DNA from: Spirochaetia bacterium UBA5763
GTDB lineage: Bacteria > Spirochaetota > UBA4802 > UBA5550
Direction: 5' to 3'
DNA: 64,000 nucleotides
Assembly (NCBI GenBank): GCA_002418835.1
Contig: DIEX01000031.1
Coordinates: 137,617 to 201,616 of the forward strand
In this document: positions 1,472 to 49,250 of the stretch, piece by piece
How the letters are laid out: each line of letters begins with the position of its first letter
Numbering within the stretch: the first letter of the stretch is position 1
Translations under genes and position numbers: made by a program
Notes under the pieces: generated by a model
Told to the model about the DNA's origin: nothing
Databases searched by the model: none
The model's input: the letters and a program-made list of their open reading frames with translations, nothing else

Positions 1472-1550
1472 GAGGTAAAGGCGGATTTTTTATTGTTTGA
1501 AAAAAAGTTTATAACTTGGGGTTGTCTAAAAAGTCAGATTTTCTTGTTTT

Positions 1551-1694
1551 TGTCATTCCGGTTTCACCCCAAGAGTGCTTCTTCGCTGCGCTCAGGGCGT
1601 GCACACTTCAATTCGTGCAAATACCGGAATCTCCTGATTAAATCAGTTGTATGAGATACCGGCATTTCGCTTCGCTACAGCCGGTATGACAAAG
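1551..1694. repeat. structured intergenic repeat (MITE/REP-like), copy 1
   Basis: TTGTCATTCCGG ... CCGGTATGACAAA termini; internal hairpin CCGGAATCTCC..ATGAGATACCGG; shares modules with copies at 4442, 41721, 45055, 49112. Confidence 0.8.
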
Positions 1695-1733
1695 AAATTA
1701 CTTTTAGGTCAGCCTCGCTAAGGGGGGGGGGAG

Positions 1734-3776: not shown

Positions 3777-4364
3777 TCATAAACCCTCAATGCGGAATGA
3801 TTTGACTATGTCAGTGCTCTGTTTCAGGTATTCAGTTGCGCTCCCTGCCAGGGGGCTCCTTTTGGGGAAAGAGACAGTCAGCTTGACAACCGCCATCTTT
3901 TCTCCGTTTTTTGATGATAATACACCGGTCACTGAAAAGCCCGATCTTTTTCTATCTTCAAATAGATGATAAAAGAACCGGGCGTTGTGTGTCGCATCCT
4001 CATATCCGTCTGATCTGAGAAAATGGAGCGTAACTTTATCCTGAACTCTATTTTTCCTGTAAAAATCAGTCTCCTTTTTTACAAGCTCAGTTGAACCGGC
4101 TGCGTAATAGTTAACATTAAGATCAACAGTATGAGTGTTATACCCTGCTGTATATGAGATAATTCTGCTGTCTTCAGGCGGATTCTCCATTTCCGCAGGA
4201 GTCCAGGTGACAGGGAGATCAATGTGAAAATCGCCATAATGCTTCTTCTCTCTATTATCAAAATCTATTTTTTGTGATTTCCCCGGATTGTCAGCACCGT
4301 ATAATGTCAAATTAAAAGCGAACATCATTATAATCACTGGTATAAACTTTTTCTGCTTCATCAT
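3777..4364 (-). CDS. secreted hypothetical protein (signal peptide)
   Basis: ORF 3777..4391; more likely start is ATGATG at 4364 preceded by GGAG RBS; N-terminus MMKQKKFIPVIIMMFAFNLTLYGA is a signal peptide. Confidence 0.5.
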   Translation of the reverse strand: MMKQKKFIPVIIMMFAFNLTLYGADNPGKSQKIDFDNREKKHYGDFHIDLPVTWTPAEMENPPEDSRIISYTAGYNTHTVDLNVNYYAAGSTELVKKETDFYRKNRVQDKVTLHFLRSDGYEDATHNARFFYHLFEDRKRSGFSVTGVLSSKNGEKMAVVKLTVSFPKRSPLAGSATEYLKQSTDIVKSFRIEGL

Positions 4365-4441
4365 GTCACTCCATTTATAATACTTAATCAATGTTTATTC
4401 CTAAAGATAGTTTTTAGTGCAAAGCTATAAATTTAGTTTTC

Positions 4442-4578
4442 TGTCATACCGGCTGTAGCGTGCGCGCCCTGAGCGTAGCGAAGAAGTACCCTTGGGGTAA
4501 AATGCCGGAATCTCATAATATTGTTCTATGAGATTCCGGCATTTGCACGAACTGATGATGCAAAACCGGAATGACAAA
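4442..4578. repeat. structured intergenic repeat, copy 2 (inverted/module-shuffled relative to copy 1)
   Basis: TGTCATACCGG...CCGGAATGACAA termini; contains GCGCCCTGAGCGTAGCGAAGAAGTACCCTTGGGG module (reverse complement of copy 1 module) and hairpin CCGGAATCTCATA..TATGAGATTCCGG. Confidence 0.8.
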
Positions 4579-4804
4579 AATTTAAGCTTATAATAATTAT
4601 ATAGCATAATTTTTTTTTAGAGTTTTTTATCTTTATAATTCTTTTAGGAATTATTACTGATACTTAATATATATACATTCCCGTTGTTTCGCATAATTTT
4701 TTATTTCTGAAACTTCTTGACTGATGTCTCTTTGAACTGATTATTGGAATAATACAAACAGTCATCTGCTGCTCTTTATTTGCGGCAGCGGCACTAGAGG
4801 CTAT

Positions 4805-5569
4805 ATGACACAATCAGTTTTCACTCTTACAGAAACATATACAGTCCGATCTTATGAAACAGATGTTAATGCACGTGCAACAATTCAGACAATGGTTAAT
4901 TATCTGCAGAACAGCGGATTTAACCATGCACTGATCCTCCGGAAATCGGGCGGGCTCTCTCACGATCCATCCACCGCATATTTTCTTACACGGCAGAAGG
5001 TGAGGATTTTCCGCTACCCTGAATGGCAGGAGACAATAACAGTAAATACATGGCTTGATCCCCGCATAGAAAAATATGCTGTCCGTGAATTCGAAATTAT
5101 TGATGCTGCCGGAGAGGTAATCGGGTGCGCCACTAATTCAGCATCTTTCTATGATCTCAAAGAGAAGAGGGTGATACCAGCATCACAGCGTATGCATAAT
5201 ATTCCTGTGCCGCCCCGCAGCCGCGCACTGGACGATCCATTTGATTCAATACCCCGTCCCTCTGTTGCAGAGTTTTCTGTGGAGTTTACTACACGCCTTG
5301 CTGACCTGGATATGTACCGTCACGTGAATAATGTCGTCTATGTTGAATGGGCTGTTGAAACACTCCCCCGCAGTGTATGGGAAGGTTGGACTCTTCGCGA
5401 TCATGAAATAAACTTCCGCTCTGAAACATCTATTGATGATGTTATACTCTCCGAAGCGGAGGAGATAACATGCAGTGATACCCGTATATTTCTGCACAGG
5501 CTCACGCGTAAGTCTGACGGAAAAGAAACAGCCCTTCTCAGAACATGGTGGCATAAGAATATAAAATAA
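4805..5569 (+). CDS. acyl-ACP thioesterase (FatA/FatB-like)
   Basis: 254 aa; N-terminal hotdog with TYTVRSYETD...ATIQTMVNYLQ and C-terminal second hotdog with YRHVNNVVYVEW motif typical of acyl-ACP thioesterases. Confidence 0.75.
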   Translation: MTQSVFTLTETYTVRSYETDVNARATIQTMVNYLQNSGFNHALILRKSGGLSHDPSTAYFLTRQKVRIFRYPEWQETITVNTWLDPRIEKYAVREFEIIDAAGEVIGCATNSASFYDLKEKRVIPASQRMHNIPVPPRSRALDDPFDSIPRPSVAEFSVEFTTRLADLDMYRHVNNVVYVEWAVETLPRSVWEGWTLRDHEINFRSETSIDDVILSEAEEITCSDTRIFLHRLTRKSDGKETALLRTWWHKNIK

Positions 5570-41448: not shown

Positions 41449-41720
41449 TTGTTACTCCTGTTTTTAAAATTTAAATTTTAAATAGTAGAGATGATATAAT
41501 CATCCGTACTTTCGTGCAGGACATTAGACGAAGCCTTTTTAGTTTTTATAAATTTGAGGTTAAGATTTTATGAATATCCTTTTGTTTAAAAGTACTCTGG
41601 TATCATTGGCTATGCAGAAAGAAAAATTTTTACACTGATAAAAACGGATTTTCACAGATGAAAAGCATATCACGGGAAGCTTCTATTTATAGCTGTTTAC
41701 GATTGGATTAGTACTTAATT

Positions 41721-41869
41721 TGTCATTCCGGTTTTGTCGCAGACAAATACCGGAATCTTAATGATAGGAATTAATTTCTGAAAACAGGGGGTAATTTCTT
41801 TTACTTTAACATTCCGGCAGTGCAGCAACGATGCTTGCCTCTGTTCGCACTCCGGCCGGGATGACAAAG
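41721..41869. repeat. structured intergenic repeat, copy 3
   Basis: TTGTCATTCCGG ... CCGGGATGACAAAG termini; internal ATACCGGAATCTTAAT and CATTCCGGCAG modules. Confidence 0.7.
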
Positions 41870-42060
41870 CTTAATTATTTCGTAAAATGCTATAGTCGGC
41901 AAATCCATCTGCGTTCATCTGTGTCTATCTGTGTAAAATTCTTTATTTTAATTCAGCCTGACATTCATGCTTCAATTCTTAACATTATTTTAACATAAAT
42001 CTTATCTAAACTGCATCTGCCGGGGATTATATCCACTCATCATAAGTTCGGATATATAAT

Positions 42061-44968: not shown

Positions 44969-45054
44969 TAATAATCACATAATTTCTTAATATAATTTTT
45001 ACATGAATATATTTAAGATTAGTTACTATAGCAAATAACGAAATGATTATCACG

Positions 45055-45166
45055 TTGTCATTCCGGCCGTAGTGACAACGAAGTGCCGGAATCTCATAAA
45101 ATTATTACAATGAGATTAGCTTCCAGCTCTTCCTGCGGTCGCCCACAGCCTTCGCGGGAATGACAT
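45055..45166. repeat. structured intergenic repeat, copy 4 (upstream of pstS)
   Basis: CGTTGTCATTCCGG..TGACAACG hairpin, GCCGGAATCTCATAAA..ATGAGATTAG, ...CGCGGGAATGACA terminus. Confidence 0.7.
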
Positions 45167-45226
45167 ACTGTGTGATTACTCAATCGTAACACGCTATAAT
45201 AAAATATTCCAGGAGGAATTCTAAAG

Positions 45227-49022: not shown

Positions 49023-49111
49023 AAAACCTACACGGCTTTACACATATAAAACATAACTGATTTTAAATACTGCCTGGGTTATAGCATTTTACTTTTGCAT
49101 TAGTTCCATCT

Positions 49112-49195
49112 TTGTCATTCCTGCGGAGGCAGGAATCTCATGGGATATTTTTTATGAGATACCGGCATTCCGCTGCGCTTCAGCCGGTATGACAA
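49112..49195. repeat. structured intergenic repeat, copy 5 (short form)
   Basis: TTGTCATTCCTGCGGAGGCAGGAATCTCAT..ATGAGATACCGGCATTCCGC..CAGCCGGTATGACAA; shares 3' module with copy 1. Confidence 0.75.
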
Positions 49196-49250
49196 TGCAC
49201 TAATCATTTCGTAAATTGCTATAAGTAAAAATTATTTGTCAGGTAGTATA

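Follow-up and report, generated by a model that had tools for sequence, protein, structure and literature searches.

Intergenic repeats of a spirochaete genome are head-to-head dimers of TGTC-tagged REP/SRM hairpin units and may be gene-less relatives of Ssn nuclease cassettes

A stretch of 64,000 nucleotides from the genome of the Spirochaetia bacterium UBA5763 (assembly GCA_002418835.1, contig DIEX01000031.1, positions 137,617 to 201,616; hereafter the window) carries five non-coding palindromic repeats, and the question raised by this locus is what kind of element they represent and which enzyme, if any, acts on them. An earlier reading of the letters alone (the sequence-only reading) had described five intergenic copies with TTGTCAT(T/A)CCGG termini and had offered a MITE (miniature inverted-repeat transposable element), a repetitive extragenic palindrome (REP) or an RNA-structure element as candidates. 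All five repeats were confirmed, at 1550-1692, 4441-4577, 41720-41867, 45055-45166 and 49112-49195, and all lie between open reading frames (ORFs). The motif TTGTCATWCCGG, with at most one mismatch, is found 10 times in the window against 0.53 expected, a count reached in none of 100 shuffles, and nine of the ten matches are element ends. An nhmmer profile built from metagenome dimers alone recovers exactly these five loci with E-values from 2e-26 to 4e-9, the next-best match in the window having an E-value of only 0.26. When folded as single strands all five copies are better than 200 shuffled sequences (z from -3.7 to -7.5, with 0/200 as good). The 60-residue ORF at 4425-4607 (-), previously regarded as spurious, does indeed lie inside copy 2.

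An examination of the copies shows that each is a head-to-head pair of hairpin units with their tags pointing outward, the left unit reading along the plus strand and its right-hand partner along the minus strand (Table 1). The units take the form (T)GTC-AT(T/A/C)CCGG...loop...CCGG(A/T/G)AT-C-TCAT. A relaxed version of this pattern, GTCAT[AT]CC..loop..GG[AT]ATC, detects 8 intact units in the window, all within the five elements, against 0.04 expected; every one of these begins with TGTC and has both a GTC directly 5' of the palindrome and a C directly 3' of it. In copies 3 and 4 the right unit is degenerate, and these 3' features have gone. The terminal inverted repeats of the sequence-only reading are therefore present, but their anatomy had been misread, as they are the 5' tags and outer stem arms of two hairpin units; nor are they uniform: copy 4 has a degenerate right terminus (GGGAATGACA), and in copy 3 this terminus reads CCGGGATGACAA. 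The central "internal hairpin" is the pairing of the two unit tails (CTCAT). Its 12-bp stem, formerly attributed to every copy, pairs perfectly in copy 2 alone and with imperfections in copies 1 and 5; it is reduced to a 7-bp ATCTCAT/ATGAGAT stem in copy 4, and copy 3 is devoid of any such hairpin. The palindromes also run beyond the ends first given to the elements, in the form of arms outside copies 1, 3, 4 and 5, to which we return below.

The stems in the window are ATTCCGG, ATACCGG or ATTCCTG, partnered by CCGGAAT, CCGGTAT or CAGGAAT. A 4-nt loop is seen only in the left unit of copy 5, and the other units have 18-62 nt between their conserved 7-bp arms. Copies 1 and 2 share a 49-nt module (repeat I1), which occurs in opposite orientation and in the loops of different units, indicating that the elements are mosaic. 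The 84-nt copy 5 takes on a cloverleaf-like fold, a four-way junction whose outer stem has 7 bp, a shape that follows from two units and a tail hairpin; a tRNA-derived origin was considered and rejected, as ARAGORN finds no tRNA in the window.

These elements belong to a described class, namely the CGTC/TGTC-tagged REPs, which are the same as the Ssn-related motifs (SRMs, NTS-like), and within it they form a new long-loop, heterodimeric spirochaete subfamily. Di Nocera, De Gregorio and Rocco (2013; PMC3733652) described CGTC-tagged REPs, with the tag often being TGTC (also CCTC), in five phyla including Spirochaetes. Their repeats have AT-initial stems and a short tail after the stem, form mostly head-to-head dimers that are often heterodimers, and in some cases sit in longer palindromes (H. 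neapolitanus, A. variabilis); no associated transposase was found. The window units share with them the unpaired (C/T)GTC tag and the AT-initial stem with complementary bases, as well as the arrangement in head-to-head dimers, often heterodimers, which are mostly intergenic and sometimes enclosed in longer palindromes. Unlike the canonical CGTC REPs, with their 8-9-bp stem and 4-5-nt loop, the window units have a conserved 7-bp stem, beyond which comes either an extended stem or a loop of 4-62 nt that can hold extra modules. The tail is CCA in the CGTC REP consensus and CTC(AT) in the window, where the two tails pair as the central hairpin.

The connection to a nuclease comes from the work of Chenal et al. 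(2025; PMC11893778) on the 28-nt Neisseria NTS (CGTCATTCCCGCGMAVGCGGGAATCYRG), which includes the dRS3 repeat and whose relatives elsewhere are the SRMs. SsnA, a 94-residue single-domain GIY-YIG nuclease, binds and cuts NTS/SRM only as single-stranded DNA (ssDNA) and on one strand only, and is inactive on RNA; the GTC before the palindrome governs cleavage, whereas the C right after it governs binding, and the ssn gene is typically flanked by its own repeats (PMC11893778). The intact window units have this arrangement, with GTC 5' of an ATTCC...GGAAT palindrome and C 3' of it. Set against the NTS consensus, copy 5 agrees in its left unit at 22 of 28 positions, and the two stem differences compensate each other.

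Three other repeat systems are instructive by comparison. The Neisseria dRS3/NIMEs (Neisseria intergenic mosaic elements; Bentley et al. 2007, PMC1797815) likewise consist of ATTCC(C)-N-(G)GGAAT repeats bracketing variable 50-150-bp modules and, like the window elements, are mosaic, recombining and exclusively intergenic; however, they form long arrays in which many dRS3 repeats are combined with RS modules, in contrast to the isolated two-unit palindromes seen here, which are set in outer shells at about 1 per 12 kb. REP/BIME repeats, associated with RAYTs (IS200/IS605-type Y1 transposases), are also short tagged palindromes in head-to-head or tail-to-tail dimers, presumed to act as ssDNA hairpins, and their partner gene is flanked by its own repeats, as in the candidate Ssn cassette described below. 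They differ in combining a GTAG tag with a Y1 transposase, whereas here there is a TGTC tag with a candidate GIY-YIG nuclease as the partner, and no RAYT was found. Finally, Correia elements (CREE) and other MITEs are likewise non-coding intergenic palindromes of about 100-200 bp. The outer arms of copies 3 to 5 start with TATAGC, as Correia terminal repeats do, and also carry outward promoter-like hexamers. In contrast to these elements, no TA or other target-site duplication was found at the window copies, whose conserved core consists of two paired REP units instead of terminal repeats bound by a transposase.

The suggestion that the five copies belong to a genome-wide family was borne out well beyond this genome: two more copies lie just outside the window, and hundreds are found in related metagenome contigs and across many phyla. 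The former two are at L121:4334-4475, 7 kb upstream of the window, and L279:7514-7620, about 0.7 kb beyond its end, giving 7 copies in approximately 82 kb of this genome (window and flanks). A scan of species representatives (one genome per species) with TTGTCATTCCGG-N(10-40)-CCGGAATCT returned, among the matches listed, Bradyrhizobium and other Alphaproteobacteria, KSB1, Leptospirales and other Spirochaetota, Ignavibacteriales, Nitrospirota, Bacteroidota, candidate phyla radiation (CPR) lineages and others, nearly all of them with the same two-unit palindrome. Metagenomes were scanned for the start of the spirochaete-type unit, and the following statistics cover 1.0 Mb of loci among the matches listed. 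These contain at least 261 units, with the stems ATTCCGG (106), ATACCGG (52) and ATCCCGG (22) and with loops mostly of 10-29 nt. The tags point outward in 71 dimers and the opposite arrangement occurs once; the partners are alpha and beta units in 45 dimers, alpha and gamma in 20, and two alpha units in 4. ORFs of at least 150 codons cover 83% of the bases, yet they hold only 2 of the 71 dimers. The variable stem positions covary over 210 units; at stem position 3, for instance, the pairs are T:A in 117 units, A:T in 52 and C:G in 22, with very few mismatches and no excess of G-T.

The assemblies of this and related genomes break inside these repeats: one contig (L001) starts at window position 1652, and another (L122) ends at window position 1607 and also starts inside another copy, while L127 and many metagenome matches lie within about 100 nt of contig ends. 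Such short-read assembly breaks offer independent evidence for a multi-copy family. We also observed, in the same metagenome lineage, a short-loop dimer (L192:246-317; GTCATTCCTGCGCAGGCAGGAATC and GTCATTCCCGCGCATGCGGGAATC) only 1-2 bases off the Neisseria NTS core, indicating that canonical and long-loop units coexist.

A link of these termini to an Ssn-type gene is provided by a metagenome-assembled genome (MAG) of the phylum KSB1 (L030), in which units at 4438-4500 (+) and 4960-5022 (-) flank a 95-residue GIY-YIG ORF at 4575-4862 (-; Pfam E-value 7.5e-19). These flanking units carry the window termini, TTGTCATTCCGGTTTT...AAATACCGGAATCTCAT, and the catalytic residues of the ORF, Y7/Y18/E65, have the spacing of the published Y6/Y17/E64. 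An alphaproteobacterial MAG (L042) has a GIY-YIG homologue with a complete dimer on each side. The homologues are single-domain proteins of approximately 95-100 residues and are found in many phyla. In 24 of 31 homologue-encoding loci taken from viral-contig data, GTC-hairpin-C units occur within 500 bp of the gene, usually as a (+) unit 45-70 nt upstream and a (-) unit located roughly 25 nt downstream; exact NTS-consensus sequences occur among these units, as do long-loop dimers (L128, L136). As the termini of the window copies are the same as those of such cassettes, from which an approximately 460-bp gene segment would be missing, the window copies are best read as gene-less, non-autonomous, MITE-like derivatives of SRM-ssn-SRM cassettes, to which they would relate as a MITE does to an insertion sequence. 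The L030 cassette is a candidate for the autonomous parent by virtue of the shared termini but comes from another phylum.

The dimers are for the most part only the core of longer palindromes. Arms of TATAGCNNTTTACGA (shell-2) lie to either side of copies 3 to 5, and copy 1 sits between GGGGTTGTCTAAAAAGT.../...CTTTTAGGTCAGCC arms (shell-1), which also occur at L121:4296-4496 and in the copies of L025, L054 and L079; the region of copy 2 (4385-4594) is 72.5% identical to L078. The five window copies have a common inner dimer and three different shells. The shell-1 (type-1) composite, of about 157 bp, was found in approximately 25 distinct copies of constant length with conserved 17-nt terminal arms, and those of a Leptospirales MAG and of Leptospirales-type contigs are 86-90% identical to copy 1, arms included. 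Outside shell-1 the flanks often carry the palindrome on (...TCTAATATCGGGG / CCCCGATATTAGA...). The contents of the shells can differ as well: a shell-2 palindrome in a relative (L125) holds another SRM subtype, GTCATTGCGAG...GCAATC, and shell-1 arms at L230:8411-8572 enclose an interior that has no SRM unit and displays shell-2-like TAATTTCGTAA / TTTACGAAATT arms. Either the dimers insert into, or swap within, existing palindromes, or the shells are a second mobile family.

Comparison with relatives indicates that the repeats turn over. The nearest homologues of the GntP protein of the window are 84-94% identical and come from Spirochaetota. In three relatives with GntP proteins 88-90% identical (L123, L124, L125) the gene order GntP-TPR (tetratricopeptide repeat)-MOFRL is kept, and copy 1 is absent; the GntP-TPR spacer measures 114-152 bp in them and 311 bp in the window. 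The presence of copy 1 is thus polymorphic, and the relatives hold copies at other sites. In the closest relative (GntP 94% identical) the contig stops 59 bp past the GntP gene. Copy 2 lies at another variable spot. In addition to copy 2, a 204-residue ORF at 3777-4391 (-) separates the MOFRL and acyl-ACP thioesterase genes in the window; its N-terminus resembles a signal peptide, and it matches nothing in Pfam or NCBIfam. In the relatives L125 and L126 no more than 187 bp lie between the two genes, so that this ORF and copy 2 are both absent there. At the site orthologous to that of copy 5, the downstream gene order is not kept in relatives of 85% and 75% identity.

Taken together, we consider it fairly probable, at about 0.6, that the elements are head-to-head heterodimers of CGTC/TGTC-REP/SRM units which act as DNA hairpins for an Ssn-family nuclease, the window copies being gene-less derivatives. 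The units would act at the DNA level, with a forward-oriented unit folding into a hairpin once its strand becomes single-stranded. A single-domain GIY-YIG endonuclease of the Ssn family, encoded elsewhere in the genome, would then bind this hairpin and nick the strand a few bases 5' of the tag; as the two units are inverted, each strand would offer one cleavable site, and the two sites would lie at opposite dimer ends. The gene-less derivatives would have dispersed among intergenic regions, for the most part embedded as the core of longer palindromic shells. The cleavage step in this organism we infer from the published biochemistry, and it is likewise only by inference that we arrive at a mode of spread or at possible effects on recombination, transformation or neighboring promoters. 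An ssn gene elsewhere in this genome is likely, though unproven, because 81% of the genomes with more than 200 SRMs encode a homologue (PMC11893778).

Several observations weigh against this proposal. The published SRM pattern, HGTCWYN(0-2)YYVSBRHN(0-5)WNVSBRGN(0-2)RNCYNB, has 0 matches in the window as against 0.18 in simulations, with window loops of 4-62 nt compared to 0-5 in the pattern and a tail of CTC instead of CCA. Searches by GIY-YIG regular expression, by tblastn with 20 homologues and by hidden Markov model (HMM) with --max recovered no GIY-YIG/Ssn gene, whether in the window, in about 18 kb of flanking DNA or across the 1.0 Mb of metagenome contigs bearing this subfamily (best tblastn/HMM E-value 0.86), and a metagenome scan for full cassettes, with window tails 445-475 nt apart, gave 0 matches. 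The L030 protein is a putative Ssn, assigned on the basis of its size, its single GIY-YIG domain, the spacing of its residues and the flanking NTS-type repeats. With respect to the mode of spread, the exact junction of copy 1 is not definable because the spacers of the relatives are too diverged, and no target-site duplication was detected around the five copies, where direct repeats beside the TTGTCAT termini had been thought worth seeking, or, at any offset, around 25 type-1 composites; the sole candidate in the latter flanks is a self-palindromic ATAT, indistinguishable from a continued palindrome. Moreover, the type-1 composite is copied as a fixed unit, which suggests that another enzyme acting at the shell ends may move at least that subfamily, since the arms are copied with the unit and also enclose the SRM-free interior in L230.

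It is conceivable that the dimers are the non-autonomous form of a mobile element driven by the Ssn GIY-YIG nuclease on ssDNA and landing in palindromes. The outward tags would then mark one nick per strand at opposite element ends, new copies would land at the apex of existing palindromes, and repeated landings would build up the outer shell, the inner shell and the central SRM dimer. We regard this as a tentative possibility; if true, it would define a transposon class that uses no known DDE, Y1, serine or tyrosine enzyme. Doubtful, in our view, is a classical MITE with terminal inverted repeats, in which the whole composite would be mobile, a DDE-type transposase would read the shell arms (e.g. 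GGGGCTGTCTCAAAAGT) and the SRM-like dimer would be cargo. It would account for the constant length and conserved arms of the approximately 25 type-1 copies, for the SRM-free interior between the same arms in L230, and for the 86-90% identity of the Leptospirales copies, arms included, and a DDE-transposase MITE may apply to the shell-1 composite. However, the classical MITE reading is unsupported because of the lack of target-site duplications in the 25 copies, whose flanks often continue the palindrome instead. Furthermore, no transposase gene recurs in 1 Mb around copies, and clustering of the ORFs around 120 loci yields sensor kinases, ABC-F proteins and the like with no transposase-like cluster. 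The single inner dimer type in three shells in the window, the different SRM subtype within the shell-2 palindrome of L125, and the recurrence of the inner dimer alone over many phyla also speak against it. Recombinases of the RAYT (Y1) or IS110 type are improbable agents: dRS3, the NTS core, is a documented phage integration target, and REP classes are generally tied to Y1 transposases (PMC3733652), but genes of the IS110, Piv or Y1 (RAYT) type do not recur around copies across 1 Mb, the tag is TGTC and not the RAYT-associated GTAG, and for CGTC REPs a search of the literature families by Di Nocera et al. turned up no associated transposase (PMC3733652).

We think it unlikely that the repeats are transcribed RNA structures, such as mRNA stabilizers, terminators or small RNAs, under selection for their RNA fold. 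The predicted folds are strong, and many REPs have been argued to work as RNA (PMC3733652), but both strands fold about equally well, and covariation in the stems keeps strictly to Watson-Crick pairing, G-T pairs being almost absent. No Rfam family matches the elements at gathering thresholds, and at E-values up to 1 there are only chance matches to microRNA-like families on the hairpin of copy 2 (20.8 and 20.5 bits against gathering values of 50 and 100). Three of the seven copies of this genome lie between same-direction genes, as an RNA role would allow, whereas the other four lie between divergent genes and none between convergent ones; in the metagenome loci the dimers fall into convergent, same-direction and divergent settings 12, 27 and 17 times, in keeping with a background of 101, 285 and 123, and there is no bias toward the 3' ends of genes. 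None of the five window copies has a T-run after its hairpins, and SsnA, as noted, is inactive on RNA (PMC11893778). Hence, of the descriptions offered by the sequence-only reading, the REP type stands, whereas the classical MITE lacks its expected duplications and the RNA structure finds no support. A further Rfam match, a sub-threshold archaeal C/D-box small nucleolar RNA at 2479-2523 (+; 27.8 bits against 45, E-value 0.006), lies inside the MOFRL-family coding region and is most likely due to chance.

Some further observations concern the surroundings of the repeats. The right end of the dimer (ATGACA) together with the shell-2 arm forms outward sigma-70-like sites at 41861-41888 and 49189-49217 (+), which are consensus matches only (ATGACA-N16-TAAAAT, 10/12, and ATGACA-N17-TAAATT, 9/12). 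Similarly, the shell ends at 41885-41894, 45189-45198 and 49214-49223 read TGCTATAGT, GCTATAAT or TGCTATAAG and resemble, by consensus only, an (extended) -10 element directed toward the downstream gene. Next to copy 1 is a run of 10 G (1722-1731), separated by 2 nt from the start codon ATG of the TPR gene (1734), where relatives show 6 G; the run is possibly a slippage-prone tract in the ribosome-binding region. In Leptospirales-type contigs (L220:2200, L233:9671, L278:4874, L079:5302, L212:1625 and others, on either strand) one of two things comes after a conserved AT-rich leader, CCTTAACTTTTATTTGAAATAAAATGCTCTAATAT: a GC-rich hairpin whose loop is GTAG-like (CCCCGCCGCC-GTAG-GCGGCGGGG-ATAT), or a shell-1 composite, so that two different palindromic repeats occupy the same type of site. 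In L230 (8340-8572) a tRNA-like 3' end (GGTTCAAATCCAGTCGCCCC) stands directly before the shell-1-armed palindrome.

Table 1. Dimers, hairpin units and outer palindromes of the five window copies, in window coordinates
Feature	Position	Strand	Remarks
Copy 1, full composite	1518-1714		shell-1 arms 1518-1543 and 1694-1714 around dimer 1550-1692
Copy 1, left unit, alpha	1552-1631	+	GTC-ATTCCGG...CCGGAAT-C; extra 49-nt module 1562-1610; found by relaxed pattern
Copy 1, central hairpin	1624-1662		imperfect pairing of the unit tails CCGGAATCTCCT / ATGAGATACCGG
Copy 1, right unit, beta	1655-1690	-	GTC-ATACCGGC...GCCGGTAT-C; found by relaxed pattern
Copy 2, dimer	4441-4577		orientation opposite to copy 1; looser outer palindrome roughly 4385-4660
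Copy 2, beta unit	4443-4512	+	49-nt module 4454-4502; found by relaxed pattern
Copy 2, central hairpin	4505-4539		perfect 12-bp arms CCGGAATCTCAT / ATGAGATTCCGG
Copy 2, alpha unit	4532-4575	-	found by relaxed pattern
Copy 3, full composite	41688-41894		shell-2 arms TATAGCTGTTTACGA... / ...TCGTAAAATGCTATA around dimer 41720-41867
Copy 3, alpha unit	41722-41757	+	found by relaxed pattern
Copy 3, degenerate right unit	41811-41865	-	GTCATCCCGG against CCGGAAT, one mismatch; no C after stem; read by eye, pattern unmatched
Copy 4, full composite	45027-45198		shell-2 arms around dimer 45055-45166
Copy 4, left unit	45057-45093	+	GTC-ATTCCGGC...GCCGGAAT-C; found by relaxed pattern
Copy 4, decayed right unit	45112-45164	-	starts GTCATTCCCGCGAAGGC, the first 17 bases of the Neisseria NTS core; 3' arm lost
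Copy 5, full composite	49080-49223		shell-2 arms around dimer 49112-49195
Copy 5, left unit, short loop	49113-49140	+	TGTCATTCCTGCGGAGGCAGGAATCTCA; found by relaxed pattern
Copy 5, right unit, beta	49158-49193	-	found by relaxed pattern

In practical terms, these repeats deserve masking or annotation as non-coding, being a source of spurious small ORFs such as 4425-4607 and of assembly breaks in short-read data (L001 and L122 as well as many metagenome contig ends). With them the CGTC-REP/SRM class gains a long-loop, heterodimeric subfamily from spirochaetes, and because the published SRM pattern misses this subfamily, surveys based on that pattern undercount the class. The consistent nesting of the dimers in longer palindromes offers a hint on landing sites. 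Chenal et al. (PMC11893778) raised the question whether Ssn cassettes are insertion sequences that generated their own repeats; the termini shared between gene-less dimers in a spirochaete and the unit-GIY-YIG-unit cassette of L030 provide material for addressing it.

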